This document shows positions 1 to 58,312 of a stretch of DNA of 64,000 bases, one piece after another; within the stretch, counting starts at the first letter, position 1, and every line of letters starts with the position of its first letter. Both the position numbers and the translations under genes were made by a program. This stretch comes from Opitutaceae bacterium (GTDB lineage Bacteria > Verrucomicrobiota > Verrucomicrobiia > Opitutales > Opitutaceae): contig DATHNW010000008.1 of NCBI GenBank assembly GCA_035485575.1, positions 18,894-82,893 on the forward strand. The letters run 5' to 3'. The notes under the pieces were generated by a model. The model was not told where the DNA came from, searched no databases, and was given only the letters and a program-made list of their open reading frames with translations.

Positions 1-30
1 GGGGCTTTTTCTGGCGAAGGTTTTCTACAA

Positions 31-765: not shown

Positions 766-780
766 ACTCTCACCGCTGCC

Positions 781-1647: not shown

Positions 1648-1660
1648 AGCGCCTCCGCGC

Positions 1661-2968: not shown

Positions 2969-2972
2969 CTGC

Positions 2973-3704: not shown

Positions 3705-3730
3705 GCCTCCAGGCTAATTTAGGGAGGACT

Positions 3731-5275: not shown

Positions 5276-5374
5276 GGTTCCTTGGCGGCAACCGGAGCGA
5301 AGCCCCTGTTGCCGACAAGGGAAAACGCGACCACGGGGCGGAGTGCAAACAAAAATATTGGCAGAGGCGAAGGA

Positions 5375-6007
5375 TCAGACGTTTTCATCCTTGCGCACCG
5401 GCGGCGAAAAAGCGCTGCGCAGGCGTCCGGCCAGCCACAAAAGCACGCCGAAGGCGGCGCCTCCGACATGGGCCATCGTCGCGACCCGGATGGACGGATC
5501 GCTGAACCGGATCATGCCGCCGCCGCTGCCACGGCCATTGTGCGCTTCAAATATGATCTCCAGCACGTAGATCGCCAAAACGGCCGGCCAGAACCAATCG
5601 ATCCAGTTCCACTGCCATCCCTGCAGAGCCAGAAAAACCAGCAGGCCAAAATTGATCGCGGAGAGACCGCCGTAACGAATCATGTCCCGGTCGCCCCAAT
5701 ACATGGCGAGGGCGATCGCGAGCGGCATGCCCAGCAGGCTGGCATAGCTGGCAAGGGGATGGTCGCGTTCCAAAAGTCCCCCGAGAATGACAAACAGTCC
5801 GGCATCGGCGATGAAGTGCGGCCATCCAAAATGAACCAGGTGGCCTGTCCAGACGCGCCACCACTCGCCATTGGCAATCGCCCCGCGGTCGTAAACCAGA
5901 AGCTCCTGCCAAGTGCCATGGCAGGCATAATTTATCTCAATCGCCAGTGTGGCAGCGGCGATAACCAGAAACACCCAGGGAATTTTATTGAAGGGGAGAA
6001 GGCGCAT
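5375..6007 (-). CDS. rrtA: rhombosortase (rhomboid-family intramembrane serine protease)
   Basis: 210 aa, polytopic. Contains GEWWR..TGHLVH, a catalytic-type GGLSAINFG Ser motif and an HVGGAAFG His motif. It lies next to a GlyGly-CTERM substrate gene. Confidence 0.8.
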   Translation of the reverse strand: MRLLPFNKIPWVFLVIAAATLAIEINYACHGTWQELLVYDRGAIANGEWWRVWTGHLVHFGWPHFIADAGLFVILGGLLERDHPLASYASLLGMPLAIALAMYWGDRDMIRYGGLSAINFGLLVFLALQGWQWNWIDWFWPAVLAIYVLEIIFEAHNGRGSGGGMIRFSDPSIRVATMAHVGGAAFGVLLWLAGRLRSAFSPPVRKDENV

Positions 6008-6034
6008 GATGGGCCGGGTCAGGAAAGCGGATTT

Positions 6035-7858: not shown

Positions 7859-8074
7859 GGCCGTTTGGGGATTATTGAGGACCGGTTTATGAGGGGAAGC
7901 CTGCGACCTGCATATCAGACCAGGAGCTTAAGTTTGAACCATTTGATGCAGAGACAGACAGCAAACATCACTCTGCCGTGCCAATAATCTTATGGTTTTC
8001 GCGAAGCTCGACGATGGCAGCCCGGATGGGCTTTAAGCCTTCAAGCCAATTTCAAGTAAATGGTTTCCAATTAC

Positions 8075-12427: not shown

Positions 12428-14188
12428 ATGACCAAAAACGAAATCGCCGATGTGCTGAATGAAATCGGGACGCTGCTCGAGCTGAAGGGCGAGAATCCGT
12501 TCAAGGTGCGCGCGTATCATGCCGGGGCACGGGCGCTCGAGGCCATTGAGGACGCGGAACTGGCGGGCCTCATCCGCGAGGACAAGCTGGAGGGCGTGAA
12601 GGGCATCGGCGAGGCGCTGGCCCAAAAGATCGGCGAACTGCAGGTGACCGGGCGGCTGAAATTTTACGACGAGCTGAAGGCGTCGATTGTCCCGGGGCTG
12701 GTGGAAATGCTGCAGGTTCCCGGGCTGGGCGCGAAAAAAGTGCGCGCGTTGCACGAAAAGCTCGGTGTGAGCAGCATCGCGGAGCTGGCGGCGGCCTGCA
12801 CGGCGGGCCGCGTGGCGGAACTCGACGGATTTGGAGAGAAGAGCCAGGAAAAGATCCTGGCCGGCATCAAGAACCGCGAGGCCTATGGCCGGCGGCATTT
12901 GTGGTGGGAAGCCTGGCAGACCGCCGAGCCGATTCTCACCGAGCTGCGGTCGTTGCCCCAGGTGATCCGGGCCGAAGCGGCGGGCAGCCTGCGGCGCGGA
13001 CTGGAGACCATCGGCGATCTTGATTTCCTCGTGGCGGCAAGCGACGCGGCGCCCGTGGTCGACTGGTTTACCCGGCAGCCGGGAGTGCAGGAAGTGACGG
13101 CGCAGGGTGAAACCAAGGCGAGCGTGCGATTTACGTGGGGATTGCAGGCCGATCTGAGGATCGTGCCGGAGGAGCAGTTTGTCTTTGCGCTGCACCATTT
13201 CACCGGTTCGAAGGAGCACAACGTCCAGATGCGGCAGCGGGCGCAGGCGCGCGGGCTGAGCTTGAGCGAGTGGGGCCTGGTGCCGGCCGAAGGCGGGGGC
13301 ACGGCGAAGGAAAAAGCCAAAAGCGCGCTGAAGAAGCTGGAAAACGTCAAAAGCGAGGCGGATCTTTTTGCGGCGCTTGGGCTGCGCTTCATCCCGCCTG
13401 AACTGCGCGAGGGGCTGGGTGAAATCGAGGTGGCGGAACACCAGGAACTGCCGCGGCTGGTCGAGCTGGGCGACCTGCGCGGTGCGTTCCACAATCACAC
13501 GACCGCCAGCGATGGGCGCAACACGCTGATCGAAATGGCCGCGGCCGCCGAAGCCCTGGGCTGGGAATATCTCGGCATCGCGGATCACTCGAAATCGAGC
13601 TTTCAGGCGAATGGCCTGAGCGAGGACCGGCTGTTGAAACAGGTGGAGGGCATCCGCGCACTGAACGCGGCCAAGCACTTCAAGACGCATGTTTTCTCCG
13701 GCACCGAATGCGACATCCTCCCGGACGGACGGCTCGATTTCGACGAGTCGATCCGGCGGCAGCTCGATTACGTGGTGGTCTCGGTGCACAGCGCCTTTTC
13801 CCAAAGCGAGGCCGACATGACAGCCCGCATCATACGTGCGCTTGAGCAGCCGCATGTGACCATGCTCGGGCATCTGACCGGCCGGCTGCTCCTGCGACGC
13901 GAAGGGTACGCCGTGGACGCGGGCAAGGTCATCGACGCGGCCATCGCCAACGGCGTCATCATCGAGCTCAACGCCAATCCGCAGCGGCTCGACATGGACT
14001 GGCGCCACTGGCGGCGGGCGGCGGAGCGCGGGCTGCTTTGCGCCATCAACCCCGATGCGCACGATACCACTGGCCTCGCGTTTGTGCGCGCCGGTGTGAA
14101 CGCCGCGCGCAAGGGCTGGCTGCCGCCAGGGCAGGTGCTGAACACCCGTCCGCTGGCCGAGGTCATTCGGTTTCTGCGGAAAAAATGA
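12428..14188 (+). CDS. polX: family X DNA polymerase with a C-terminal PHP domain
   Basis: About 586 aa. The N-terminus ([26 protein letters not shown]) is typical of PolX. HhH repeats are present. The C-terminal PHP His clusters are HNHT and ADHS. Confidence 0.88.
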
Positions 14189-29000: not shown

Positions 29001-29762
29001 TTACTTGCCCTCGGTTGAGACGCCCTGTGGATCGAAGATGTAGCCGACGCCGTGCACCGTGCGGAAGGCGCCGAGATCCAAGCCGTTATTCTTGAAGAGC
29101 TCGCGCACTTTCACAATGTACTGGTCGAGCGAGCGGCTGCGCACGTCGGCGTGGAGGCCCCAGACGGCATGGATGAGCGCCTTGCGCGTGATGACGATGC
29201 CCTGATTTTCGTTCAGATAGGCGAGGATGCCGAGCTCTTTGCGGCCGATTTTCTGGACGACGCTGTTGGGAAACGCGACCTCGAGACGGACGGGCGTGAC
29301 CTTAGCACCGCAAAAATCAAACGGCTCATCGCTGATCCTGGCGTTTTTCGTGACGTGGAAATCGCTTTTTGACTCGGCGCGGCGCAATACGGCGTTGATG
29401 CGGGCGATGAGCTCCGGGTAGCCGAAAGGCTTGGTAATGTAGTCATCCCCGCCAAGATCGAGGCCCTTGACCTTGTTCACCTCAAGGGCGTTGCCGGTCA
29501 GGAAAATCGCGGGGATGGTGATGTCGTTTTTGCGCAGGTCTTCCAGGAGGGCAAAACCTGTCTGGTCGGGCAGATTGACGTCGAGCAGGATCAGATTGGC
29601 AAAATTGCGCTTGAGAAAGCGGAAGGCATGGGCGCAGCGGTTGTAAACCTGCGTCTGCATGCCGGATTCCTCGAGATGAATGGAGATAAGCTTTGCAAGC
29701 TCCTCTTCGTCCTCGACAACGAGGATCAGCGGCTTGGGTTCAGAACGAATGGCGGCGCACAT
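29001..29762 (-). CDS. OmpR-family response regulator (receiver plus winged-helix); no cognate kinase in the window
   Basis: 253 aa. Receiver domain (LVVEDEEEL, LLDVNLPD, TKPF). The C-terminal trans_reg_C part ends in RTVHGVGY. Confidence 0.88.
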   Translation of the reverse strand: MCAAIRSEPKPLILVVEDEEELAKLISIHLEESGMQTQVYNRCAHAFRFLKRNFANLILLDVNLPDQTGFALLEDLRKNDITIPAIFLTGNALEVNKVKGLDLGGDDYITKPFGYPELIARINAVLRRAESKSDFHVTKNARISDEPFDFCGAKVTPVRLEVAFPNSVVQKIGRKELGILAYLNENQGIVITRKALIHAVWGLHADVRSRSLDQYIVKVRELFKNNGLDLGAFRTVHGVGYIFDPQGVSTEGK

Positions 29763-29946
29763 GGGGTGAATTTGGATTTATAAAAAATACGTTAGAATGC
29801 ATTTTTTACAATTTAGCCCATTTTGTCAAAAGAATCTTGAGGCCTTTCTAAAGGCTGCACCGGATGGCCTTTGGCCGCGAATTTTCTTGAAGGCGCCCTC
29901 CGGCGGCGGCTCCCTTGGCCCCGTGTCCGCACCCGCACCATTACTT

Positions 29947-30807
29947 ATGCTCGGCCTGCCCAAAGGCAGCCTCGAGGAATCGACGAAAAACCTGTTTGCC
30001 AAGGCAGGCTGGAAAATCACCACGAGCTCGCGTTCCTACAAGCCGGCCATCGACGATGCCGAGCTCGACGGCCGTTTTGTGCGCGCCCAGGAGGTCAGCC
30101 GTTATGTCGAACACGGCTTTTTCGACTGCGGCCTCACGGGTTACGACTGGATCAAGGAAAACGAGTCCGACGTCGTCGAGGTTTGCGACCTGATTTACAG
30201 CAAGGCTTCCGTGCAAAAGTCCCGGTGGGTGCTTTGCGTGCCCGAATCCTCGTCTGTCCGGCGGCCGGAGGACCTGGCCGGCAAGCGCGTGGCCACGGAG
30301 CTGGTCAACACCGTCAAGCGCTACTTTGCCGCGAAGAAAATTCCCATCGAGATCGAGTTTTCGTGGGGCGCGACCGAGGTGAAGGTGCCCGACCTTGTCG
30401 ATGCCATCGTGGACATCACCGAGACCGGCTCGTCCCTGCGCGCGAACAAGCTCCGCATCGTCGACACGCTGCTCGAGACCAATACCAAGTTCATCGCCAA
30501 CAAAAAAAGCTGGGCCAATCCCGCGAAGCGCAAAAAGATCGAGACCATCGCGCTGCTCCTGCGCGGCGCGCTCGAGGCCGAAAGCAAGGTCGGCCTCAAG
30601 ATGAATGCGCCGAAAAAATCGCTCGACGACATCATCAAGGCCGTGCCCGCGCTGCGCAACCCGACCATCTCGCCGCTCAGCAACCTCGACTGGGTCGCGC
30701 TCGAGACCATCATCGATGAAAGCGTCGCGCGCGAAATCATCCCCGAGCTCAAGCGCCTCGGCGCCGAGGGCATCGTCGAGTATCCGCTGAACAAGGTGGT
30801 CTATTAA
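29947..30807 (+). CDS. hisG: ATP phosphoribosyltransferase (long form)
   Basis: 286 aa from [12 protein letters not shown]...AG. Contains [12 protein letters not shown] and a C-terminal regulatory domain. Confidence 0.88.
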
Positions 30808-30813
30808 TGTTGG

Positions 30814-30952
30814 AAGCGCAAAGGTGCGAAGACGCAAAGCACGGACAAAATTCAAGGACCGGAAACCATAAAAACTTTTGAGCCGATCTGACTTTCCTGG
30901 CTTTCTGGCTTTAGAATTCATTCTGCTTTTCCATCTTTGCGCCTTTGCGCTT
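30814..30952. repeat. 18-nt inverted repeats built from GCGCAAAG-like octamers, enclosing a ~103-nt AT-rich spacer
   Basis: AAGCGCAAAGGTGCGAAG (30814-30831) pairs with CTTTGCGCCTTTGCGCTT (30935-30952). As RNA, 16 positions are Watson-Crick and 2 are G-U. The left arm is 3 tandem octamers and the right arm is 2 inverted octamers. Confidence 0.7.
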
Positions 30953-30966
30953 AAAATTTCCGTATC

Positions 30967-31845
30967 ATGTCGAAGATCACCCTAGGTTTGCTCCAGCACG
31001 CCTGCTCCGCCGATCCCGCGGCCAACCTGAAGAAAACCCTCGCGCTGGCCGAAAAGGCCGCGAAGAAGGGCGCCAATATCATTTGCACGCAGGAGCTGTT
31101 TCGCTCTCAGTACTTCTGCCAGAGCGAGGATCATAAAAATTTCAAACTGGCCGAGCCCGTCCCCGGCCCGAGCACCGAGGCCTTCCAAGCGCTGGCCAAA
31201 AAGCACGGCGTGGTCGTCATCGCGTCGCTCTTCGAGAAACGGGCGTCCGGCCTTTACCACAACACGGCTGCGATCATCGATGCGGATGGAAAACTTCTGG
31301 GCATCTATCGCAAGATGCACATCCCGGACGACCCGCTTTACTACGAAAAATTCTATTTCACGCCCGGCGACACCGGCTTCAAGGCGTGGAAGACGAAGTT
31401 CGGCAAGATCGGCGTCCTCGTCTGCTGGGACCAATGGTATCCCGAAGGCGCGCGGCTGACCGCGCTGCAGGGCGCAGAGATCATTTTCTACCCCACCGCG
31501 ATCGGCTGGCATCCGAAGGAAAAAAAGAAATACGGCGTGAACCAGCATGGCGCGTGGGAAGTCATCCAGCGCTCGCACGCCGTCGCCAACGGCTGCTATG
31601 TTGCCGTCACGAATCGCGTCGGCCATGAGAGGCCGGTTGGCGGCTCCGGCATCGAATTCTGGGGGCAAAGCTTTGTCGCCGGCACCAGCGGCCAGATCCT
31701 CGCGAAGGCGGGCGTCAAGAAGGAGGAAATCCTCCTCGTGCCGATTGATCTGGCGAATGTCGACGTGACGCGCACGCACTGGCCGTTTTTGCGCGACCGG
31801 CGCATCGACGCCTACGGCGACCTCACGAAGCGTTTTCGCGACTGA
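30967..31845 (+). CDS. aguB: N-carbamoylputrescine amidase (C-N hydrolase family)
   Basis: 292 aa nitrilase-fold protein (CTQELF, YRKMHIPDDP.Y.EK.YF.PG, VCWDQW.PE). Adjacent to aguA. Confidence 0.9.
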   Translation: MSKITLGLLQHACSADPAANLKKTLALAEKAAKKGANIICTQELFRSQYFCQSEDHKNFKLAEPVPGPSTEAFQALAKKHGVVVIASLFEKRASGLYHNTAAIIDADGKLLGIYRKMHIPDDPLYYEKFYFTPGDTGFKAWKTKFGKIGVLVCWDQWYPEGARLTALQGAEIIFYPTAIGWHPKEKKKYGVNQHGAWEVIQRSHAVANGCYVAVTNRVGHERPVGGSGIEFWGQSFVAGTSGQILAKAGVKKEEILLVPIDLANVDVTRTHWPFLRDRRIDAYGDLTKRFRD

Positions 31846-35288: not shown

Positions 35289-35336
35289 TTCAGTTATTAA
35301 ATGGAAAGGATAGGACTGGTGCTGGTCAGCAAAAAC

Positions 35337-35819
35337 ATGGCATCGTACACTGCTGAAATTTTCTGGAGCCGAGGGACGCAAGCGTTCTCTGATAATCGCT
35401 ACAGCCGGAAACACAGCTGGCGATTTGATGGCGGTGTTGAAGTAAAGGCTTCATCCTCGCCGCATGTCGTTCCGCTTCCATATTCGGCTCAAGACGCGGT
35501 CGATCCAGAAGAAGCATTTGTCGCGAGCCTTTCTAGTTGTCACATGCTTTGGTTTCTCTCGATAGCCGCCAAGAAAGGCTTTGTTGTGGACGAATATGTT
35601 GATGCGGCAATTGGCGTCATGGAAAAGAATACTCAAGGTAAGCTCGCGATGACTAAGGTCGTTTTGCATCCCAAAGTGAAGTTTTCGGGTTCATGTAGTC
35701 CGGGCAGCGTCGAGCTTTCTGCATTACACCACGCTGCACACGAAGAGTGCTTTATTGCTAATTCGGTTCTTACCGAGGTTTCGTGTGAACCTGTATTTGG
35801 TCAGCCATGTCATCGGTAG
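35337..35819 (+). CDS. OsmC/Ohr-family protein
   Basis: 160 aa from MASYTAEI. Contains the OsmC-like block ..DPEE.FVASLSSCHMLWFL... GC is visibly lower than in neighbouring genes. Confidence 0.7.
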   Translation: MASYTAEIFWSRGTQAFSDNRYSRKHSWRFDGGVEVKASSSPHVVPLPYSAQDAVDPEEAFVASLSSCHMLWFLSIAAKKGFVVDEYVDAAIGVMEKNTQGKLAMTKVVLHPKVKFSGSCSPGSVELSALHHAAHEECFIANSVLTEVSCEPVFGQPCHR

Positions 35820-35880
35820 GCATTTCTTCAACACCCGACCAAATTTCGATTGAAATGGAAGCCGCCTTTGAATTCGCAAA

Positions 35881-36119
35881 ATGAGCCCCACGATCTTCCA
35901 GTTTTGAAATTACCGCTTCTTCTTTTTCTCTCGCGAGGAGCCTCGCATTCATGTGCATGTCTTTTCGCCCGACGGGGAGGCGAAATACTGGCTGGAACCG
36001 AAGATAGAACTGGCTATCAATAAGGGTTCCGTCCGAAGGATCTCAAGGTCATCGAAGCGAAAATCAAAGAACATGAAGATGAAATCCGCAAAGCTTGGAA
36101 GAAACACTTCGGCAGCTGA
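35881..36119 (+). pseudogene. decayed DUF4160-family gene (in-frame TGA plus a 1-nt frameshift)
   Basis: My translation reads MSPTIFQF*NYRFFFFSREEPRIHVHVFSPDGEAKYWLEPKIELAINKG, with the TGA at 35905-35907. The frame then shifts near 36025-36027 into FRPKDLKVIEAKIKEHEDEIRKAWKKHFGS*. Both halves match the DUF4160 pattern (YRFFF.S.E...PHIHV...GEAKFWL.P..LA...GF...L..IE..v.e....l..aW...F). Confidence 0.7.
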
Positions 36120-36339
36120 GGTCACGCATATCTCGAAGCACGGTCTTTGGGTGCTCGTTGGCGAGAAGGAGTATCTTTTGACTTACGAGGATTTTCCCTG
36201 GTTTTCAGACGGAAAAGTTTCGGAGGTCACGAATGTCGAGCTATTGCACGGCACGCACTTGCGCTGGCCCGATCTCGATGTCGATATCGAGCTGGAATCG
36301 TTGAAATACCCCGACCGTTACCCGCTCATTTATAAATGA
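36073..36339 (+). CDS. DUF2442-family small protein
   Basis: About 88 aa. The C-terminal block FPWFSDG...EV.NVEL..G.HL.WPDLDVDIELESL..P..YPL matches DUF2442. The start is uncertain (ATG at 36073 or 36079). Track ORF 35953..36339 fuses it to the DUF4160 remnant. Confidence 0.65.
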   Translation: MKMKSAKLGRNTSAAEVTHISKHGLWVLVGEKEYLLTYEDFPWFSDGKVSEVTNVELLHGTHLRWPDLDVDIELESLKYPDRYPLIYK

Positions 36340-39529: not shown

Positions 39530-41383
39530 CTATTCCACGGTCACGCTTTTGGCCAGATTGCGCGGCTTGTCCACGTCGCAACCGCGCTCGACCGCGATGT
39601 AATAGCTGAGCAGTTGCACGGGGATCGTCGCGACGATGGGCAGGACGGCCTCATGGCAGTCGGGAATGGCAATGACCTCGTCGGCCAGGCCTTCCGGCAG
39701 TTCGCAGCCCTCCGTGACGATGGCGATGATTTTGCCCTTGCGGGCCTTGATCTCCTGCATACTGGAGACGAGCTTGTTGAACATCTCACCCTTCGAGGCG
39801 AAGAAAACGCTGGGGCATTTTTCGCTGATAAGCGCGATGGGCCCGTGCTTCATCTCGGCGGCGGGATAGCCCTCGGCGTGGATGTAGGAAATTTCCTTCA
39901 GCTTGAGCGCGCCTTCGAGCGCGATGGGGAAAAGCGAGAGGCGGCCGAGAAAAAGGAAGTCGCTGTGCTGCGCGTAGCGTTTCGCGATTTTTTTGATGTG
40001 TGGCGCCAGCTCGAGCGTTTTCTTCACCAGCACGGGCGCCTGCTTGAGCGCCTGCACAAGCTGCACGCCGTCGCTGAAGCTCATGTCGCGCAGCCGGGCG
40101 ACGTAGAGTGCGATCATGGCGCCGAGGAGGAGCTGCGAGGTGAAGGCCTTGGTCGAGGCCACGCCGATTTCCGGGCCGACGTGCTGATAGACGCCGCCGT
40201 CGGCCTCGCGTGCAATGGTCGAGCCGACGACGTTGTTGAGGGCGAGCACGCGGTGGCCCTTGCGCTTGGCCTCGCGCAGGGCGGCGAGCGTGTCGATGGT
40301 CTCGCCCGACTGGCTGATGACAAAGAAGAGCGTGCGCGAATCCAGCGGCATGTTCCGGTAGCGGAACTCCGAGGCGTAATCGACCTCCACCGGCACGCGG
40401 GCAAAGCGCTCGATCAGGTGCTCGGTCACGAGGCTGGCATGCCAGGCGGAACCGCAGGCGCAGAAAACAAAGCGGTCGATGTGGCGGAACTCGGCCGGCA
40501 GGAGGTTGAGTCCGCCGAAATTCGCCGTGCTGCCGTCCTCGCTGAAGCGGCCGCGCATGGTGTTTTCGAGCGCCTGCGGCTGCTCGAAAATCTCCTTTTC
40601 CATGAAATGGGCGTAGTCGCCCATCTCGGCGTCCTCCACGGCCCAGGTGATTTTGTCCACCACGGGCGAGACGTCTGCCTGGTCGAGCGTGGTGATGGAG
40701 AATTCGCGCGGGGTAAGGTGCACGAGCTCGCCGTCCTTGAGATAGACGACGTTCTGGGTGCGGCTGATAAGCGCGGAGGCATCGCTGGCGAGGATGTGTT
40801 CGCCGTCGCCCACGCCGAGAAGGAGAGGGGAGCCCTTGCGCGCGCCGACGATCTGGTCCGGCGCGTCGGTGCAAAGCACGGCGATGCCGTAGGTGCCTTC
40901 GACATGGCGCAGGGTCTTGCGCACGCTCTCGAGGAAGCGGCTCTGCCCCTTGGGTTCGGCCGGTTCCTTGGCATAATGGTACGCCATGAGGTTGCAGAGC
41001 ACCTCGGTGTCGGTCTCAGACTTGAACGTGTAGCCTTTGGCGAGGAGGAACTTCTTGATCGCGGCGTAGTTCTCGATGACGCCGTTGTGGATGAGCGCGA
41101 GCTTCCCGTCGCTGCTCACGTGCGGGTGGGCGTTGGTGTCGGTCACGCCGCCGTGCGTGGCCCAGCGCGTGTGGCTGATGCCGGTGGTGCCGTTCAGGCG
41201 GTGCTGCGAGGCTTCCTTCACCAGGTTGTCCACGCGGCCGATTTTTTTCACGACGGCGAGCCTGCCGTTTTCCTGCACGGCCAGCCCGGCGGAATCATAA
41301 CCGCGGTATTCCAGGCGCTTCAACCCCTCGAGCAGAATGCCCGCGGCGCGTTGTTTACCGACGTATCCGACAATGCCACACAT
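39530..41383 (-). CDS. glmS: glutamine--fructose-6-phosphate aminotransferase
   Basis: 617 aa. N-terminus MCGIVGY, two SIS domains and the C-terminus ...DKPRNLAKSVTVE. Confidence 0.95.
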   Translation of the reverse strand: MCGIVGYVGKQRAAGILLEGLKRLEYRGYDSAGLAVQENGRLAVVKKIGRVDNLVKEASQHRLNGTTGISHTRWATHGGVTDTNAHPHVSSDGKLALIHNGVIENYAAIKKFLLAKGYTFKSETDTEVLCNLMAYHYAKEPAEPKGQSRFLESVRKTLRHVEGTYGIAVLCTDAPDQIVGARKGSPLLLGVGDGEHILASDASALISRTQNVVYLKDGELVHLTPREFSITTLDQADVSPVVDKITWAVEDAEMGDYAHFMEKEIFEQPQALENTMRGRFSEDGSTANFGGLNLLPAEFRHIDRFVFCACGSAWHASLVTEHLIERFARVPVEVDYASEFRYRNMPLDSRTLFFVISQSGETIDTLAALREAKRKGHRVLALNNVVGSTIAREADGGVYQHVGPEIGVASTKAFTSQLLLGAMIALYVARLRDMSFSDGVQLVQALKQAPVLVKKTLELAPHIKKIAKRYAQHSDFLFLGRLSLFPIALEGALKLKEISYIHAEGYPAAEMKHGPIALISEKCPSVFFASKGEMFNKLVSSMQEIKARKGKIIAIVTEGCELPEGLADEVIAIPDCHEAVLPIVATIPVQLLSYYIAVERGCDVDKPRNLAKSVTVE

Positions 41384-44682: not shown

Positions 44683-44780
44683 CCGGCCAGTGTAGGGGTG
44701 CGTGGCGATTTGCGAACCCGAAAGTGAGGCCAATTCAAAAGACCTTGCCTGCGCCTTTTCCACCCGCAGTCTGCGCAGCC

Positions 44781-45884
44781 ATGAGCGAATTGAAACGCAC
44801 GCCCCTGTACGCCTTCCACGTGGCGCACGGCGGGCGCATGGTGGACTTCGCCGGCTGGGAGATGCCGGTGCAGTACAAGAGCATCCTCGGCGAGCATCTC
44901 GCGGTGCGCCGCGCGGCCGGCCTTTTCGACGTCAGCCACATGGGCGAGGCCGATGTGCGCGGACCGGAAGCGGCCCAGTTCCTGAACCACGTGGTCACAA
45001 ACGACGTCGCCCGGCTCTTCCCCGGCCGCGTGCTCTACACGCCGGTGTGCTACCCCGACGGCGGGGTGGTGGACGACCTGCTCGTTTACATGCGCGGACC
45101 GGAGGATTTTTTCCTCTGCTTCAACGCCGGTAACATCGACAAGGATCTCGCCTGGCTGCGCGAGCAGGCGGCGAAGTTCAATGTCACGGTCACCGACCGC
45201 TCGGCCGATTACGCGCTCCTCGCGCTGCAAGGCCCGCGTGCCGCCGCCATTCTCTCGCCGCTCACGGCGACGAAGCTCGACACGATCAAATACTATCACT
45301 TTGCCGAGGGCACGGTTGCCGGCGTGAAGTGCATCATCAGCCGCACCGGTTACACGGGCGAGGACGGCTTCGAACTTTATCATGCGCCGGGCGAGGCGGA
45401 AAAGCTCGCCACCGCGCTGCTGGCCGCCGGCACGCCGCTGGGTCTCGAACTGGTCGGCCTGGGCGCGCGCGACAGCCTGCGCCTAGAGGCGGGTTATCCG
45501 CTTTACGGCCATGAAATCACGGCCGACATCTCGCCGCTCACCGCCGGCCTGGGCTGGACGGTGAAACTCGACAAGGGCGCCGACTTCATCGGTCGCGGGG
45601 CGCTGCTGGCCGAAAAGGAAACCGGCACGCCGCGCAAGGTCGTGTTTTTCAAGACGGGAGACCGCCGCATCGTGCGCGCCGACACCCCCGTGCTCGGGCC
45701 GGCCGGCGCGGTCGTGGGCAAGGTCGTCTCCGGCACGCTTTCGCCCGTGCTCAACGAGGCCATTGGCTCGGCCCTTGTTGAAACCACCGCCGCCGCCGAA
45801 CCGCTCGCAGTGGACATCCGCGGCGTGAAGCTCGATTTGCGTCTGGCCAAGCCTCCATTCGTCGAACTAAAGAAAACCACATGA
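44781..45884 (+). CDS. gcvT: glycine cleavage system aminomethyltransferase T
   Basis: 367 aa from [11 protein letters not shown]...G..MV.F.GW.MP.QY. Contains DVSHMG. Confidence 0.92.
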
Positions 45885-46264
45885 GCAACGTTCCTGCCGA
45901 TCTCCGCTACGCGAAGTCCCACGAATGGCTGAAGCCTGCGGGCGACGGCACCGCGACCGTCGGCATCACCGACTACGCGCAAAACTCGCTCGGCGACATC
46001 ACCTACGTGCAATTGCCGAAGGTCGGCGCGACCTTTGCCGCCGGCGCGGTCTTTGGCGTGGTCGAGAGCGTGAAAGCGGCGAGCGATCTTTATGCGCCCG
46101 CGGCCGGCACGGTCACGGCGGTGAACGACGCGCTCAACAACGCGCCCGAGACGGTCAACCAGTCGCCCTACGATAGCGGCTGGATTTTGAAACTGAAGCT
46201 GGCCAACCCCGCCGAAGCGAATGCGCTACTTTCACCGGCCGACTACGAAAAGGTGATTGGGTGA
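45881..46264 (+). CDS. gcvH: glycine cleavage system H protein
   Basis: 127 aa. Motifs Y...HEW and the lipoyl-lysine motif ESVKAASD. ATGA overlap with gcvT. Confidence 0.93.
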   Translation: MSNVPADLRYAKSHEWLKPAGDGTATVGITDYAQNSLGDITYVQLPKVGATFAAGAVFGVVESVKAASDLYAPAAGTVTAVNDALNNAPETVNQSPYDSGWILKLKLANPAEANALLSPADYEKVIG

Positions 46265-46389
46265 AATTTCGACATGCGTGGTCTTGAAGTCGTGAAGTTC
46301 GAGCAACTCGACGACGACGGTCACCTTTTCAAGATCGCCCTCGATAATCTTTTTTCGCTCGACACCGTTCGCTTCACTCAAGGCTTGGC

Positions 46390-47934
46390 ATGAGCGGCAA
46401 GATAACGACGGGACATGGGCTGAACGCTGATGAAGTCTTCCTCGGTTTAGTCGATTTCGGACTATTCAGTGAAAAGATGCCTGCCTGCTTTTCTGCGGAG
46501 GGATTGGCAAAACTGGTCCCCGCAAGTCTGGCGAAGATCAGCACTGAGACTGACCTTTCCAAACTTAAAAAACTGATCGCCAAACAAACCCACGGAGTCA
46601 TCCGCTATCAAGTTCTACGCGACGTAAATATCCCCCGCCAGATGGGAATTCCACATCCGCAGAGCCATCTCGCACAGTGCCTCGCCATCAAGCGTTGCTG
46701 GAGTGAGATCAAGAAGCACTGTGCCAAACCGACCGCGCCGGTAAGTCGAATCTTCGTGCGGGACACGGGTGCAGATCGTGTCTTCGAGATGAATTACAAA
46801 GGGGCAGAGCGCCTCGAAGTCGAAGAGCAGGAACTCGGTTTCCTCACCGGCGCGACCTACGTGGTTCACGCGGATATCGCCGCTTGTTTCCCGAGCATCT
46901 ACACCCATTCTATCCCATGGGCCTTGCATGGCAGAAAATTAGCCAAGCAGGCACGCGACGATCTCTCTCTGGCGGGTAACTTGCTCGACAAAGCCACTCA
47001 AGTAGTCCGTGACGCGCAAACCAACGGCCTGCTCATTGGCCCACACGCGTCCAACATCATTGCGGAAATTGTCCTGACATGTGTGGACGCGCATCTGTTA
47101 AAGAAAAGCTATATCCGGCTCAGCCGTCACATCGACGATTACCGCTACTACGCCCGCACACACGAGGAGGCGGAGAACTTTATTCGCGACCTCGGGCTCG
47201 GCCTTCGGGAATTCGAGTTGGCCCTGAACGAGCGAAAGACGAAAATTCTGCCCCTGCCTCGCCCGCAGACGGAGAATTGGGTGCGTGAGTTAACGACATT
47301 TCAATTTCCTGACGGATTGATTCGACATTCTACGGTGAGGTCCTTTCTGGATCTCGCTCTTCACTTAGCCCAAGAGTCGGGAACATCGGCCGTTCTTAAT
47401 TACGCAATAAAGATGATCCCAGCCCGTCTTAATGACCGGGCTAAACGCCTTTTTTCCCTTGAGGCGATGAATCTCGCACTTGCATACCCTTATCTCGCGC
47501 CGTTGCTCGGTGAGCATGTATTCGCGAAGCACACTCATGTTGGAATGGAAAAGGTAATCGCGACTTTTGCCGATGAACTCCTGCGAATCGGCATCCGTCG
47601 CATCTATCCGGATGCAATTGCCCACGCGCTTTACTATGCCATTAAATACGATACAACCCTCTCGCAGTCCGAGGCTAAACTTCGAGAGATCGTGATGATC
47701 GACGATGGCATCTGCCACGTATTGCTCCTCGAGTATGCCAACCGACGGAAGCTCGCTGCGATTCAGAAGGCCGTCACAACTCGCGCTAACAATCTCAAAG
47801 GCCTCGATTCCAGAGAGCAGGACCCATTTTGGCTTCTGCTCTATCAGGTATGGACCGAAGCTGATCTTTGCGGCAATGGCCACGAATTGCTGGCCGAGCT
47901 TAAAGCAAAATATTTCACGTTCTTGCGATTTTGA
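46390..47934 (+). CDS. reverse transcriptase, UG/Abi (defence-associated) class, with a C-terminal alpha-helical repeat domain
   Basis: 514 aa. RT motifs: 1/2 RYQVLRDVNIPRQMGIPHP (aa 72-90); A VVHADIAACFPSIYTHSIPW (Asp162); B LLIGPHASNIIAEIVL (aa 214-229); C RHIDDYRYY (aa 246-254, nt 47128-47139 = HIDD); E LNERKTKIL. About 210 aa of helical C-terminus follow. There is no maturase/HNH domain, no retron VTG motif and no DGR accessory genes. Confidence 0.85.
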   Translation: MSGKITTGHGLNADEVFLGLVDFGLFSEKMPACFSAEGLAKLVPASLAKISTETDLSKLKKLIAKQTHGVIRYQVLRDVNIPRQMGIPHPQSHLAQCLAIKRCWSEIKKHCAKPTAPVSRIFVRDTGADRVFEMNYKGAERLEVEEQELGFLTGATYVVHADIAACFPSIYTHSIPWALHGRKLAKQARDDLSLAGNLLDKATQVVRDAQTNGLLIGPHASNIIAEIVLTCVDAHLLKKSYIRLSRHIDDYRYYARTHEEAENFIRDLGLGLREFELALNERKTKILPLPRPQTENWVRELTTFQFPDGLIRHSTVRSFLDLALHLAQESGTSAVLNYAIKMIPARLNDRAKRLFSLEAMNLALAYPYLAPLLGEHVFAKHTHVGMEKVIATFADELLRIGIRRIYPDAIAHALYYAIKYDTTLSQSEAKLREIVMIDDGICHVLLLEYANRRKLAAIQKAVTTRANNLKGLDSREQDPFWLLLYQVWTEADLCGNGHELLAELKAKYFTFLRF

Positions 47935-47991
47935 TAGCGCTTCGATTTTCGCACGGTAAACTACCAATGCTCTCAGCGTGAAATGAGCCTA

Positions 47992-48078
47992 GCATAACCA
48001 ATCGCCCGATCCAACGTGAATAGGCCTGGGCCGTTATTGCCGCGCTTGTCCTCGCGTGGGGCATCTCTAACGTTCGGC
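47992..48078 (+). repeat. attC-like imperfect palindromic repeat, copy 1 (87 nt)
   Basis: GCATAAC ... GTTCGGC ends, 5/7 complementary. Inner helix AT(C)GCCC / GGGCAT with one bulged base. It shares the 3' core GCTTGTCCTCGCGTGGGGCATCTCTAACGTTCGGC with the other copies. Confidence 0.5.
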
Positions 48079-48088
48079 AAATCACCCG

Positions 48089-48499
48089 ATGCAAATCGAC
48101 GAACTCACCCTTGTTTTGCTCGGAGCCTTCTGGACCGGTACGACGGCGGTTTTTACCGGCATGCAGATGGCCGATGCCGCGCGCGACCGCATCATGCTGG
48201 CCAAAGCTGACGATGTTCATCTGCCTCCCGACTATCGGCGGCACTTGCTCTGGTATACGTGGGTTCCCTTGCGCGTCTCTCTCGCCAGCGTATCGCTCCT
48301 GCTTGGCGTCATCATCGTCTTTCTGCCGAAGCTCGCCACGGAAGCGGGCACCACGTCCCGACCTACTTTCGCCGCCATCTGCCTTTGGTCTGCTTTCATT
48401 CCATTTTCCGGCGCGGCTCTCTTCTTCATCACTTCCTTCCTCGAATTCTTCACGATGAAATCTCGTATCCATGATGCAGGGCGAAAGAATAAGACCTAA
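48089..48499 (+). CDS. hypothetical small membrane protein (3-4 TM)
   Basis: 136 aa with an ATG start. Hydrophobic helices at about aa 6-25, 52-78 and 93-125. I recognise no family. Same strand as the RT and 154 nt downstream of it. Confidence 0.55.
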   Translation: MQIDELTLVLLGAFWTGTTAVFTGMQMADAARDRIMLAKADDVHLPPDYRRHLLWYTWVPLRVSLASVSLLLGVIIVFLPKLATEAGTTSRPTFAAICLWSAFIPFSGAALFFITSFLEFFTMKSRIHDAGRKNKT

Positions 48500-48598
48500 C
48501 CAATTGCCCGAGTCACGAGTCATTTTCGCCCATTTGGCGAGCTCAGGGCTTAGGCCATGCTTGTCGCCCGTGTGAGTCGGCTCTAACTAGCGTTGGGC
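48494..48598 (+). repeat. attC-like imperfect palindromic repeat, copy 2 (105 nt)
   Basis: ACCTAAC fits RYYYAAC exactly and overlaps the stop codon. GTTGGGC fits GTTRRRY exactly. The inner 9-bp helix CCGAGTCAC/GTGAGTCGG has one mismatch. Confidence 0.55.
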
Positions 48599-48610
48599 CC
48601 AACCAATCCC

Positions 48611-48907
48611 ATGAATACCAAAGCGAAATTGAGAGACTATCTGCGACGGGCGAGATCCGACGTCTCCTTAAGAAGCAGACTATTGGGCGATGCACGATTT
48701 ATGAAGAAAACCTCTGGCTGGATGGCGATAGTGTGGATATTGTTGCTTTTGGCACAGACCGCATTCGAAGGGCAGCCATGGTTTTCGAGCTCTTCCGCCA
48801 CAGCGTGGCTCGGCCTTATGTTTGCGGTAATGCTATTCGACAAATTTTCGGATCGGGTTGCGATGATGGAGTCAATGGAAGAGCCGACGAATCAACCATC
48901 AGTTTGA
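48611..48907 (+). CDS. hypothetical small membrane protein (2 TM)
   Basis: 98 aa from the ATG at 48611 (the track start 48593 is a TTG). Basic N-terminus, two TM helices and an acidic tail. Confidence 0.5.
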   Translation: MNTKAKLRDYLRRARSDVSLRSRLLGDARFMKKTSGWMAIVWILLLLAQTAFEGQPWFSSSSATAWLGLMFAVMLFDKFSDRVAMMESMEEPTNQPSV

Positions 48908-48957
48908 GGCCGATCCGACTACGCTTATGCTGCAGAGGTCATCTCTAACGTTCAGCC
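48908..48957 (+). repeat. attC-like repeat, copy 3 (short/degenerate, ~50 nt)
   Basis: GGCCGATC ... GTTCAGCC ends, 6/8 complementary. It has the same ATCTCTAACGTTCAGCC core as copy 1. Confidence 0.4.
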
Positions 48958-48979
48958 AATAATCCACCCAGGAGGAAGC

Positions 48980-49387
48980 ATGGCCGCCGTTTTTGAAAAA
49001 CTGAATCTCAAGGGACAGACCGAGATTCTCGTGGTCAATGCGCCGCCGTCCTTTGAAGCCGAATTGGCCAGACTTGAAGGGGTCACCGTGGTTCGCGACC
49101 CAAAGAAGGCAAAGGCGGTTCATTTTGCCCTGGCGTTCGCTACCAAGCAGGCCGAAGTCGACGCTTTCTCGAAGACGCTCGCGGGCAAAGCTGAAGGCGA
49201 TGCCGTGCTCTGGTTTGCTTATCCGAAAGGCACATCCAAGAAATACAAATGTGAGTTTAACCGCGATTCCGGATGGAAAGTGATTCGTGGCCTTGGCTTC
49301 GACTCGGTGCGCCAGGTTGCGATTGATGAAGATTGGTCCGCGCTGAGATTCAGGCGCGTAGAGTACATTAAGTCATCCGGGAAATGA
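48980..49387 (+). CDS. DUF3052-like small cytoplasmic protein
   Basis: 135 aa. Strong AGGAGG Shine-Dalgarno at 48970-48975. The pattern ..ILVVNAP..F......D.VLWFAYPKG.S.......RD.GW.....G...V..VAIDEDWSALRF resembles DUF3052 (assignment from memory). Confidence 0.6.
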   Translation: MAAVFEKLNLKGQTEILVVNAPPSFEAELARLEGVTVVRDPKKAKAVHFALAFATKQAEVDAFSKTLAGKAEGDAVLWFAYPKGTSKKYKCEFNRDSGWKVIRGLGFDSVRQVAIDEDWSALRFRRVEYIKSSGK

Positions 49388-49404
49388 GGCCGAATCAGCC
49401 GCCG

Positions 49405-49473
49405 ACCTAACGCTGCACCGGTTGGAATCGTTTGGCCACGCTTGTCCTTGCCTGGGTCCGCCCTACGTTAGCC
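49405..49473 (+). repeat. attC-like imperfect palindromic repeat, copy 4 (69 nt)
   Basis: ACCTAAC (exact RYYYAAC) ... GTTAGCC. CTAACG/CGTTAG pair. Contains the shared core CGCTTGTCCTTGCCTGGG. Confidence 0.5.
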
Positions 49474-49478
49474 CAGAC

Positions 49479-49943
49479 ATGAACCTCACCGATGAACTTC
49501 GTAAGCTCGCCGAACTTCACCAGGAAGGTAATCTCAGCGACCAGGAATTCGCCGACGCGAAGCGGCGGTTGATCGCTGAGAGCGACGCCGAGCCGTCCGC
49601 TGCCACGCCGCAGGAAGAAAACGCGGCCTCCGAGGGAGCCGTCGAAGTCGACGAGAAGAAGTACCGGTCCAGCCGCTGGTCGTCTGGCAATTTCTTTTTT
49701 CCGGATACTTTGACGCTATCGAGCGACGGCATGTTGTTCCGCAAGGGCGCGATGTTCGGCTCCAGTGAGGAGCACATCAATTACCGGGCGGTGGCTTCAT
49801 TCCGGGTCAAGAATGGCATCTTCCTGTCGAATCTCTGCATCGAAACCTCCGGCGGCAGCCAGCCGATTTTCATCAATGGGCTGTGGAAATCCGAGGCCAG
49901 GGAGATTCAGGACGCGATTCGCGCATTCCAAAGAAACTGCTGA
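49479..49943 (+). CDS. SHOCT-domain protein with a C-terminal bacterial-PH-like domain
   Basis: 154 aa from the ATG at 49479. The N-terminal LRKLAELHQEGNLSDQEFADAKRRLI is a SHOCT motif. The C-terminal roughly 90 aa are beta-rich and PH-like (FFFPD.L.L..DG..F.K......E...NY..V..F.V..G). Confidence 0.6.
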   Translation: MNLTDELRKLAELHQEGNLSDQEFADAKRRLIAESDAEPSAATPQEENAASEGAVEVDEKKYRSSRWSSGNFFFPDTLTLSSDGMLFRKGAMFGSSEEHINYRAVASFRVKNGIFLSNLCIETSGGSQPIFINGLWKSEAREIQDAIRAFQRNC

Positions 49944-49954
49944 TCGGCGACCGA

Positions 49955-49971
49955 AGCCAACGCGGTTTAGC
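49955..49971 (+). repeat. possible collapsed remnant of the same repeat at the island's right edge
   Basis: AGCCAAC-GCG-GTTTAGC, located just before the typA stop codon (49988-49990). Confidence 0.25.
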
Positions 49972-49987
49972 TGCTTGGGCCGGGCAC

Positions 49988-51805
<1,818 letters not shown>

Positions 51806-51889
51806 GGCGCTGCGTATGGAAAAGCTGAAGAACGTGCGCGCTTGTGGGGCGGAACGCAAGGCCGAAGCCGCGGGAGGAAAGATCCGCCC

Positions 51890-56884: not shown

Positions 56885-58312
56885 TTAGGCCTGCGAGAAA
56901 CATCTTTCCGACTCGGTGCTGATCGTTTGGTGCCTTTCCGGTTTGGCTATGTACATGAACACCAAGCGGAGTCCACCCACCAGGAGATACCCGAGAAAGA
57001 CGTACGGGAAATAGTTCAGAGGCGGAGCCGGCACGGGGTAGACGCTCCCGATCGCCGGGATGCACATTAGCAGGACACCGGCCACGCAGAAAATGACATC
57101 CTTGATCTTCATTTCCTTGCGCTTCTTGAGGAAAACGGGCGCGGCGATGGTCACGAGAAAGTAGGCGCCGAGAAACCCAAACGCGCCCATGGTTCCCGCA
57201 TCATTAAAGATATCGAGCACTTCCAAGCCGAAGTGTTTCATTTTGCACACCGTCGCGACTCCGAACACCAGGACGCTCATGACCGCGAGGGCGACGTGCG
57301 GGGTTTCATGCACTTTGTGGACGGAACTGGTCGACTTGGGAAAAAAGTCATGCCGACCCATTGCGAACATCACCCGGGCGCCCGAATTGATGCAGGCAAG
57401 CGCCAGCGCGAAGAAGCTTAACATGGCTCCCGCCGATACGACCGGTGCGAAGGCGCTGACGCCATACCGTTCGGCGAGCGTGTTGAGGGGGGCGCCGAGC
57501 TGGTCGAGCGTCTGGCTGTAGCCATGCGTGCCCAGCACCTCGACATAGGTAATAAAGACGAAGAACAAACCGGTGGCGATCAGACTCCAGATGATGGAAC
57601 GTGGAATCGTTTTCAGCGGATCCTTGGCTTCATCGCCAAAGGCGGTCGAACTCTCGAACCCGACCAGGCTGAAGATGGCGACCACTATTCCGAGACCGAG
57701 GCTGGAATGGGTGACGCTCTTAAAGTCGAACTGTGCCGGATCGGGGGCGAATTGCGTTTTGCCGAGAACGATGAAGGCGAGGATCAAGATGAACAGGACC
57801 GAGATTCCCTCGAGCACGAGCGAAACGATCGTTGAGATCTTGATATCCTGGTAAGCGACGTAAAAACATCCGCCCACGCAGACTGCAAACAGCAACACCG
57901 GCGGGGCGTGAATGTGAACCATCTGTAGAAGCGTGTCGGCAAAAATGGTGAAGCCAGTGGTTCCCGCGATCCCGATGAAGAGGTAGGCCCAGACCAGGCA
58001 CCACCCGCACATCGAACCGGCGCCTGCGCCCAAGCCGGAACAGGTGTAGCTGTACATCGATCCGGTGCCGGCGCCGCGCCGGGCGAACTGGTTCAGGTTG
58101 TAGGCGACAAACAAGAGCATGACGGTCGCCACGGCGTAGGAGAGCCAGCTCATGTTTCCGGAATTGGAAAACATGAGCGGCACGATCAACGCGGCGGTCA
58201 TGGTCGGGGATATCATTGCGATATTCTGTGCCCAGAGCTCCACGAAGTTGAGGACTTTCGGTTTAAGACTGGGGTTCATAGACCCCGAGGGTGAATCTGA
58301 TGCCTGGTTCAT
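56885..58312 (-). CDS. APC-superfamily amino acid/polyamine permease
   Basis: 475 aa with about 12 TM helices. The stop is 4 nt upstream of the MOSC gene start. Confidence 0.8.
   Translation of the reverse strand: MNQASDSPSGSMNPSLKPKVLNFVELWAQNIAMISPTMTAALIVPLMFSNSGNMSWLSYAVATVMLLFVAYNLNQFARRGAGTGSMYSYTCSGLGAGAGSMCGWCLVWAYLFIGIAGTTGFTIFADTLLQMVHIHAPPVLLFAVCVGGCFYVAYQDIKISTIVSLVLEGISVLFILILAFIVLGKTQFAPDPAQFDFKSVTHSSLGLGIVVAIFSLVGFESSTAFGDEAKDPLKTIPRSIIWSLIATGLFFVFITYVEVLGTHGYSQTLDQLGAPLNTLAERYGVSAFAPVVSAGAMLSFFALALACINSGARVMFAMGRHDFFPKSTSSVHKVHETPHVALAVMSVLVFGVATVCKMKHFGLEVLDIFNDAGTMGAFGFLGAYFLVTIAAPVFLKKRKEMKIKDVIFCVAGVLLMCIPAIGSVYPVPAPPLNYFPYVFLGYLLVGGLRLVFMYIAKPERHQTISTESERCFSQA

Follow-up and report, generated by a model that had tools for sequence, protein, structure and literature searches.

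We analysed a 64,000-nt stretch of Opitutaceae bacterium DNA (contig DATHNW010000008.1 of assembly GCA_035485575.1; hereafter the window) in which a reverse transcriptase (RT) gene of the DRT4 (UG15) family lies between the housekeeping genes gcvH and typA. The RT gene opens an island of 3723 nt that also contains four small open reading frames (ORFs) and four elements resembling integron attC sites. Housekeeping genes flank this island on both sides, with glmS, glgC, lgt, CNNM, gcvT and gcvH upstream and typA and a HemN-like gene downstream, and the base composition marks it off from them: GC content drops from about 0.63-0.67 to 0.50-0.58 between roughly positions 46,000 and 49,800, the island has a GC content of 0.54 versus 0.63, and GC at third codon positions is 0.60 in the RT gene versus 0.82 for gcvT and gcvH. 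Scanning a genome collection with GcvT yielded long contigs from three related genomes (L014, L015 and L043), all three of which preserve the gene order lgt-cnnm-gcvT-gcvH-typA. The gcvH and typA stop codons lie about 131 nt apart in L014, a stretch that includes a terminator hairpin; the corresponding distance is about 30 nt for L015 and about 970 nt for L043, as against the 3723 nt of the window. This synteny and the short gap in relatives indicate that the RT gene and the four small ORFs are an insertion into a conserved housekeeping block. An earlier note on this DNA, made from the sequence alone, had described the RT as an orphan in a housekeeping neighbourhood; the neighbourhood is as described, while the word orphan is misleading, since the RT is the first unit of a five-gene, compositionally foreign island of cassette type.

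The same locus recurs in other assemblies and is therefore neither a chance product nor an assembly chimera: the island is base-for-base identical in two other assemblies with readable DNA (L001 and L002), and a third has the same gene order at the RT locus. Over 12.7 kb, the window and the independent assembly L001 differ at just four positions, all within 55 nt of glmS (40187-40241), a cluster for which local polymorphism and an assembly hotspot are both conceivable explanations. The island borders showed neither a tRNA nor an integrase or transposase gene, and no tRNAs were found in the window as a whole. A repeat scan detected no flanking direct repeats suggestive of a target-site duplication and no direct repeats above 31 nt in length near the RT gene, and public gene calls contain no recombinase Pfam domain within 10 kb on either side of the RT.

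The RT ORF is full length, with its frame intact, and the exact protein is public as HTB79701.1 ('MAG TPA: RNA-directed DNA polymerase [Opitutaceae bacterium]'). The RT motifs quoted in the earlier note lie at the residues that it gave (D162 in HADIAACFPSIYTHSIPW, HIDD at 247-250 and LNERKTK at 279-285), and Pfam RVT_1 matches residues 152-287 with 34.3 bits, above its gathering score of 29.6. Relatives of the RT are mostly 514 aa long as well, with an alignment coverage of 100%, which shows that the start codon is correct. In an AlphaFold2 model built from 39 homologues (pLDDT 84, pTM 0.82), the C-terminal part of roughly 210 aa consists of helices spanning residues 296-506, in agreement with the all-helical domain that had been predicted there.

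Sequence profiles, sequence matches in the PDB and the predicted fold agree independently in assigning the RT to DRT4/UG15. The PADLOC profile Drt4 (PDLC02178) ranks first and aligns over the full length of the protein (E=1.1e-142, 475 bits; residues 10-512 on profile positions 11-500 of 506), followed by Drt6 (303 bits, E=1.4e-90) and then by UG30, UG14, Drt3b and AbiK. The NCBIfam model NF041749, 'antiviral reverse transcriptase Drt4', scores 417.1 bits (E=1.1e-124), and the other NCBIfam models (group II intron, retron and Drt3/5) give 17-100 bits. A phmmer search against the PDB placed UG15/DRT4 chains at the top (E=4e-47, residues 29-487), with DRT6, AbiK and Abi-P2 next. Foldseek searches with the AlphaFold2 model returned the DRT4 structures 9vdo and 9vdv and the UG15 structure 9l9s at template modelling (TM) scores of 0.78-0.81 (0.79/0.81 for 9vdo, whose superposition covers about 500 columns of the RT model and takes in the alpha-Rep region), followed by DRT6 (0.74), AbiK (0.70) and Abi-P2 (about 0.5), and TM scores normalised on the query were at most 0.35 for group II intron, diversity-generating retroelement (DGR) and retron RTs. 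The RT is thus a member of the DRT4 (UG15) family within class 1 of the UG/Abi RTs, not a new subgroup as had been thought possible, and both the class-1 placement in the earlier note and its exclusion of group II introns, retrons and DGRs hold up under the profile and structure comparisons.

The residues on which the activity of this family depends are largely retained. A residue-level comparison with the CHARACTERISED enzyme (E. coli DRT4), taken from the parsed phmmer alignment, spans 434 aligned positions at 32.3% identity. In this map, R83, N135, Y136 and F151 of the window RT match E. coli R75, N124, Y125 (the priming tyrosine) and F140 (at the trimer interface); D162, I163, D249 and D250 match D149, I150, D240 and D241; and N280, K283 and Y338 match N271, K274 and Y337, the last of which stacks on the DNA product in the E. 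coli enzyme (PMC12783706). R83, Y136, D162, D249, K283 and Y338 are invariant in the clade alignment. Across 120 family representatives drawn from 50%-identity clusters, the three catalytic aspartates are invariant, the positions of Lys283, Asn280 and Arg83 are essentially so, and a tyrosine occupies the priming position in 99.

Motif C of the RT reads HIDD, which the earlier note had taken for a departure from the usual motif. Its first residue is His in 81 of the 120 closest relatives (Tyr in 28, Asn in 5 and Ala in 3) and in 39 of the 120 wider representatives (Tyr in 31, Asn in 28 and Phe in 9), so that HIDD is normal for DRT4, being the majority form in the clade and the commonest form across the wider family. 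At 50% identity this DRT4-like family comprises 3537 clusters when matches up to E<=1e-3 are admitted, and 564 when E<=1e-30 is required. Nine of its representatives (P0156, P0175, P0176, P0187, P0207, P0214, P0217, P0221 and P0241) are 840-950 aa long and consist of an RT/alpha-Rep unit of about 500 aa with 350-450 extra residues.

For seven loci that encode relatives of the RT at 71-75% identity, we compared neighbouring genes and flanking DNA. The neighbours vary and are typical defence genes, among them a Type IIG restriction-methylase, an HKD+Snf2 helicase, an LmuB-like ATPase and Type II methyltransferases. In several of these loci the upstream gene and the start of the RT gene share 4 nt, so that an upstream non-coding RNA (ncRNA) would have no space between them. 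Neither the 125-nt upstream spacer of the window RT nor its downstream spacer has a counterpart in the seven loci, and the upstream spacer (46265-46389) contains no attC-like site, terminator, or conserved or structured RNA. No Rfam family, group II intron and retron msr included, reaches threshold anywhere in the window, a permissive Rfam search gave only a chance match to DicF (E=0.92), and the flanks of the RT gene fold as shuffled sequence does (z of -0.10 and +0.59). E. coli DRT4 is a single gene that needs neither an ncRNA nor partners (PMC12783706), and the window RT fits the description of a stand-alone DRT4 without a conserved partner or ncRNA. The expectation in the earlier note that an ncRNA would make the flanking non-coding DNA important was therefore not borne out, the non-coding DNA downstream being an attC-like site. 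A 39-aa ORF at 46274-46393, which overlaps the RT start by 4 nt, was considered as a remnant of the small genes found upstream of the relatives and was rejected, as it shows no similarity to them and those genes differ from one another.

Some of the relatives' loci deserve separate mention. In L004, L007 and L010 (positions 1-7545 of each), RTs 71-74% identical to that of the window lie directly downstream of an HKD(PLD)+Snf2 helicase (PADLOC candidate C3a139) and a Type IIG enzyme, a restriction-methylase of about 1170 aa. The 4-nt overlap in L004-L009 suggests that DRT4 is co-transcribed there with a module resembling restriction-modification (R-M) systems, a linkage that is absent from the window. 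A second high-GC Opitutaceae genome, a metagenome-assembled genome (MAG; GCA_030693515.1, L003:1-1578), carries a DRT4 that is 74% identical and has a GC content of 0.557 versus 0.658 for its flanks; its neighbours are metabolic-enzyme genes that differ from those in the window, and it lacks an attC-like site, which suggests that this DRT4 was acquired independently.

The spacers that precede the four small ORFs share a conserved core that is absent from the spacer before the RT and occurs nowhere else in the 64-kb window. A metagenome scan with this core identified five other contigs, on which the elements also form same-strand arrays and end 10-20 nt before an ATG. The full-length layout reads, in order, a stop codon, an RYYYAAC-like box, 5 nt, GC(C)A-GACCCA, a variable centre, TGGGTC-A-GC, 6 nt, a GTTCGGC-type box and an ATG. 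This corresponds to the R''-L''...L'-R' layout of an integron attC site, with a proposed unpaired central spacer, mismatched L box and variable terminal structure. The four island sites lie on the same strand within 1.5 kb and are 83-105 nt long; one follows the RT and one follows each of three of the four small ORFs, beginning 0-57 nt past a stop codon or overlapping it and ending 5-23 nt before the next ATG. Published attC criteria are a length of 57-141 nt together with a 5' box of the RYYYAAC type and a 3' box of the GTTRRRY type (PMC5371416, PMC4889954). The 5' boxes on the other contigs include GCCGAAC, GCCTAAC and ATCTAAC, several boxes are one position off the strict consensus, and in the best copies the end boxes are perfect reverse complements (GCCGAAC...GTTCGGC). 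The 18 proposed base pairs form in 84% of cells, versus 24-39% when the pairing is slid, and the minimum free energy (MFE) fold of the copy L096_7314 consists of exactly the R box, spacer and L box (that of L096_6805 does so partly).

A covariance model of the element, applied to the metagenome contig L096, found nine same-strand sites, five of them unseeded, with one after almost every small ORF. This array (L096:1700-7932; Ga0070741_10006261) holds unrelated small ORFs, including lipoprotein-like, glyoxalase-like and membrane proteins, and begins immediately downstream of two genes, one DUF47/PhoU-like and one encoding a pit phosphate transporter. The same element family is present in L095, L097/L093 and L094, and no integrase was seen in the analysed stretches of these array contigs. 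The covariance model found no site in the empty-site genomes. Three sets of candidates were set aside. Half-site remnants picked out by eye ('GCGTGGTC...GTTCGAGCAA' downstream of gcvH and 'CCAACGCGG' downstream of the last ORF) were supported by neither nhmmer nor the covariance model; an ad hoc scan that looked for generic attC termini by regular expression and base pairing was non-specific, with 54 matches in the window versus about 40 in shuffles; and a weak match to the element, at 13343-13401, falls within the coding sequence of a 601-aa ORF and is due to chance. The coordinates of the island, its genes and its sites are collected in Table 1.

Table 1. Features of the gcvH-typA island and its borders, in window coordinates. 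Ec, E. coli DRT4; site scores are from the covariance model of the element.
Feature	Position	Strand	Remarks
gcvT-gcvH	44724-46264	+	Host operon directly upstream
Inserted low-GC island	46265-49987	+	gcvH stop to typA stop; RT and four small ORFs
Spacer gcvH-RT	46265-46389	+	125 nt; weak promoter-like GATAAT at 46343-46348 (by eye)
DRT4/UG15-type RT gene	46390-47934	+	514 aa; start ATG
Fingers and palm (RT) part	46390-47274	+	Residues 1-295; Pfam RVT_1 core at 46843-47250
Codon of Tyr136	46795-46797	+	Ec protein-priming Tyr125 in the residue map; preceded by Asn135 (Ec N124)
Codon of Asp162	46873-46875	+	Motif A metal ligand; Ec D149 in the residue map
Motif C, H247-I-D249-D250	47128-47139	+	Ec Y238-I-D240-D241
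N280-E-R-K283	47227-47238	+	dNTP-positioning; Ec N271, K274
All-helical alpha-Rep domain in place of a thumb	47275-47931	+	Residues 296-514; includes Y338 (Ec Y337)
attC-like site 1	47992-48078	+	57 nt past RT stop; R'' GCATAAC 47992-47998, R' GTTCGGC 48072-48078; 85.7 bits; ATG 10 nt on
Cassette ORF, 136 aa	48089-48499	+	Putative membrane protein from its hydrophobic stretches (by eye); no family match
attC-like site 2	48494-48598	+	R'' ACCTAAC overlaps stop of 136-aa ORF; R' GTTGGGC 48592-48598; 48.9 bits
Cassette ORF, 98 aa	48611-48907	+	From ATG 48611 (104 aa from TTG 48593); hydrophobic stretch (by eye); no family match
attC-like site 3	48874-48956	+	Degenerate, internally deleted; R' GTTCAGC 48950-48956; 22.4 bits, E about 0.007
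Cassette ORF, 135 aa	48980-49387	+	Preceded by AGGAGG ribosome-binding site; no family match
attC-like site 4	49389-49473	+	R'' GCCGAAT 49389-49395, R' GTTAGCC 49467-49473; 67.1 bits; ATG 5 nt on
Last island ORF, 154 aa	49479-49943	+	From ATG 49479 (173 aa from TTG 49422); sub-threshold SHOCT and bacterial-PH matches; typA stop 44 nt away
typA/bipA	49988-51859	-	Convergent host gene; right island border

Taken as a whole, the locus is best explained as a functional DRT4 within a cassette array resembling a CALIN, the name given to integron cassette arrays without an integrase (Cury et al. 2016, PMC4889954), and on our analysis this explanation is very probably right. The island would fit the working description of a CALIN, and we regard the attC and cassette part of the reading as probable. 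The fullest version, in which a bona fide integron cassette carrying a DRT4 RT would head a five-gene CALIN in an Opitutaceae chromosome, with an apparently lineage-specific attC family and read-through from the glycine-cleavage operon, stands at even odds. For the enzyme itself, the intact frame, the complete catalytic set and purifying selection in the clade favour a working protein, as judged from its sequence: dS between the window RT and its relatives is saturated (dN of 0.17-0.22), and dN/dS, estimable only for within-clade pairs, is 0.05-0.08.

Several observations weigh against this explanation. Identity to the sole characterised enzyme is low (32%; DRT4 and DRT6 are 23% identical, PMC12783706), and since the PDB alignment begins at residue 29, E. 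coli K24 and S26 fall outside the residue map. The NF041749 score lies below the 450-bit equivalog cut-off, which is the stringency threshold of one model and not a structural feature. The product-stacking Y238 of E. coli is H247 in the window RT, the product-contacting R301 is Q305, and the inter-trimer residues E202 and H204 are Q210 and N212; because these residues are replaced, the window RT may depart from its E. coli counterpart in product spectrum and in oligomeric state. On the side of the sites, scores come from a home-made covariance model of the element and not from the attC model of IntegronFinder, three pairs are changed on both sides while overall covariation is no better than in shuffles, and the site DNA gives weak folding z-scores (-1.6 to +2.1). 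Searches with nhmmer and with the covariance model yielded no site to the left of the RT and none beyond the last ORF, the covariance model found none at any of the seven loci of RT relatives, and no integrase was seen at the island.

The weak folding and covariation and the missing integrase would also fit an element that is not an attC site at all and is instead a shared promoter or 5'-untranslated-region module, or a repeat of the repetitive extragenic palindromic (REP) or miniature inverted-repeat transposable element (MITE) kind, with the island having arrived by homologous recombination at a variable intergenic spot and the RT still being a DRT4. A plausible promoter-like arrangement, TTGTCC-16 nt-TAACGT, can be discerned by eye just upstream of each ATG, and the spot is variable in any case, since L043 has an unrelated gene there and no such elements. 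However, a promoter has no need to start at or within stop codons, as these elements do, nor does such a module account for ends that match the RYYYAAC and GTTRRRY boxes and form perfect reverse complements in the best copies, for the exact attC-like fold of L096_7314, or for the presence of one site per ORF in same-strand arrays of nine. Poor folding in silico is, moreover, known for chromosomal attC sites (PMC5371416). We consider this alternative unlikely, though less so than those that follow.

A second possibility, which we rate as distinctly improbable, is that horizontal transfer has left the RT behind as an inactive relic, no longer expressed or no longer functional in its host. A consensus scan recognised no promoter of its own, its composition has not been ameliorated to that of the host, and the array looks degraded, given the internal deletion in site 3 and the lack of a site after the last ORF. 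These features have to be set against an intact, full-length frame in which every catalytic and priming residue is kept, strong purifying selection across the clade, an identical sequence in the independent assemblies compared, and a position co-directional with and downstream of gcvTH with no terminator between.

Still less probable, to the point of being a marginal proposal, is a multi-gene system in which the RT acts with the downstream small ORFs, for instance with the hydrophobic 136-aa protein as effector. In its favour, the ORFs share one strand and lie close together, hydrophobic stretches like those of many Abi effectors occur in the first of them, and the altered inter-trimer interface could be read in the same sense; yet the small ORFs have no homologue in the seven relative loci (tblastn), whose own neighbours vary, an attC-like site stands between the RT and each ORF and marks them as independent modules, no small island ORF has a PADLOC match, and E. 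coli DRT4 is sufficient alone. That the RT is templated by an ncRNA in the manner of DRT2 or DRT9, or belongs to a retron, group II intron or DGR, is extremely improbable. This idea draws on the generic RVT_1 palm and on weak, sub-threshold NCBIfam matches (42.5 bits versus a cut-off of 300 for group II introns and 20.7 versus 235 for retron St85), and it is contradicted by the Foldseek scores of at most 0.35 versus 0.8 for DRT4, by the absence of any Rfam match even in the permissive search, by flanks that are unstructured and unconserved, and by the 4-nt gene overlap that excludes an upstream ncRNA in several relatives.

If the locus does hold a functional DRT4 in a CALIN-like array, its working can be sketched by homology with the E. 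coli enzyme, which forms a dimer of trimers, makes untemplated random single-stranded DNA (ssDNA) that is primed by Tyr125 and linked to the protein, and confers abortive-infection defence; exonuclease I normally removes this ssDNA (PMC12783706). The window RT would likewise form an oligomer, using the hydroxyl of Tyr136 as primer and no template, and would constantly polymerise short random ssDNA that remains covalently held on the protein and is trimmed by host 3'-5' exonucleases. During infection, a phage ssDNA-binding protein would shield the 3' ends, ssDNA would accumulate, and the infected cell would die before phage release. The oligomer may be a hexamer (dimer of trimers), the form on which DRT4 activity depends, in that the trimer-interface phenylalanine F151 is kept, although the inter-trimer residues are changed. 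Horizontal transfer would have brought the gene in at the promoter-proximal end of a small cassette array of integron type, placed between gcvH and typA in the order RT, attC-like site, three ORF-plus-site units and last ORF. The RT is probably transcribed either by read-through from gcvTH, which lies directly upstream on the same strand and is not separated from it by a terminator, or from its own weak promoter containing the GATAAT near 46343. Integron integrases can place cassettes into ordinary genomic sites (the attG route), and such cassettes need a host promoter close by to be expressed (Loot et al., 10.1101/2022.09.11.507474); the position of the island directly downstream of gcvTH, without a terminator, fits cassettes inserted and driven in this way.

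Among known systems, the closest counterpart of the RT is the DRT4 of E. coli 12-c8-a (WP_031606642.1; PDB 9vdo, 9vdv, 9l9s and 9ltm; Wang et al., Nat Commun 2025, PMC12783706), which it resembles over its full length in having fingers and palm, no thumb and an alpha-Rep domain. The two also share the priming tyrosine, the catalytic aspartates, the Arg, Asn and Lys of the dNTP site, the stacking tyrosine (Tyr338 in the window RT) and the trimer phenylalanine, as well as the single-gene organisation without an ncRNA and relatives in defence islands. The window RT differs in being 26 aa shorter at the C terminus, in having HIDD in place of YIDD, Gln in place of R301 and Gln/Asn in place of E202/H204, and in residing in a Verrucomicrobiota MAG, embedded in a cassette array. 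DRT6/UG12 (9wy8), AbiK (7r06), Abi-P2 (7r08) and AbiA (8oz7) belong to the same fold class and share the protein-primed, untemplated chemistry, with DRT6, AbiK and Abi-P2 scoring lower and ranking second to fourth by both profile and structure. AbiK is said, after work of Figiel et al. in 2022, to prime from a tyrosine in its C-terminal domain, unlike the DRT4-type site that is conserved in the window RT.

In common with CALINs, the island has at least two same-strand attC-like sites within 4 kb, small co-oriented ORFs that mostly lack promoters, and no intI within 10 kb; it departs from them in that its sites were defined by a home-made model, no terminal sites were found and the attC family appears to be lineage-specific. 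Like the defence cassettes of mobile integrons termed BRiCs (10.1101/2024.07.02.601719), it would carry a compact single-gene anti-phage system as one cassette, and it differs from known defence cassettes in that its host is not a gamma-proteobacterium. Chromosomal integrons have been described as defence biobanks (PMC12614218). In the searchable literature we found no report of a DRT/UG reverse transcriptase as an integron cassette and no description of this attC family.

The protein is thus an ordinary member of the DRT4 family, and it is the cassette-array context that is new. If the sites are functional attC sites, the role of integron cassettes as stores of defence genes would extend to reverse transcriptases and to the Verrucomicrobiota, and the locus would offer a clean cassette array beside a housekeeping operon with empty-site comparators at hand. 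The closest RT relatives (71-75% identical), which are not cassettes, lie in defence islands and have no attC, would then form with the window a 'before and after' pair, showing how a defence gene of 1.5 kb is turned into a cassette, a step that integron biology has yet to explain. There is a consequence for annotation as well. The NF041749 score narrowly misses its cut-off, which explains the generic public annotation of the RT; the DRT4-like clade sits just under the NCBI naming threshold and is deposited as generic 'RNA-directed DNA polymerase', and the few named relatives listed bear only this label or 'hypothetical protein'. The clade with the His motif is probably missed systematically by the NCBIfam Drt4 model and recognised by PADLOC. 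Finally, the natural variation among His, Tyr, Asn and Phe at the stacking position, together with that at the inter-trimer interface, provides ready variants for the study of product composition and oligomerisation.

The gcvH-typA interval varies among genomes, as L043 carries an unrelated gene there. In this Verrucomicrobia MAG, the site (L043:11491-12455) holds a high-GC gene, whose 201-aa product has a hydrophobic, signal-like segment at its N terminus, together with a terminator, and attC-like sites were not found. The native gcvH-typA terminator is no longer detectable in the window: the hairpin of L014 (11503-11633; aaaaaagcccgcc...ggcgggct) is missing from 49944-49987. Convergent transcription may therefore collide at the last island ORF and typA, which are 44 nt apart without a terminator-like structure. 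Elsewhere in the window, a second GC dip (0.526) at 35301-36339, between rpsA and rpoD, contains two small accessory ORFs that by eye are of OsmC/Ohr type (172 aa) and DUF2442 type (128 aa); it has no attC-like sites, a recombinase check there was empty, and it looks like another small acquired islet. Milder dips, to 0.56-0.58 versus about 0.63-0.67, occur at 3001-4000, 7001-8000, 29001-31000 and 57001-58000.

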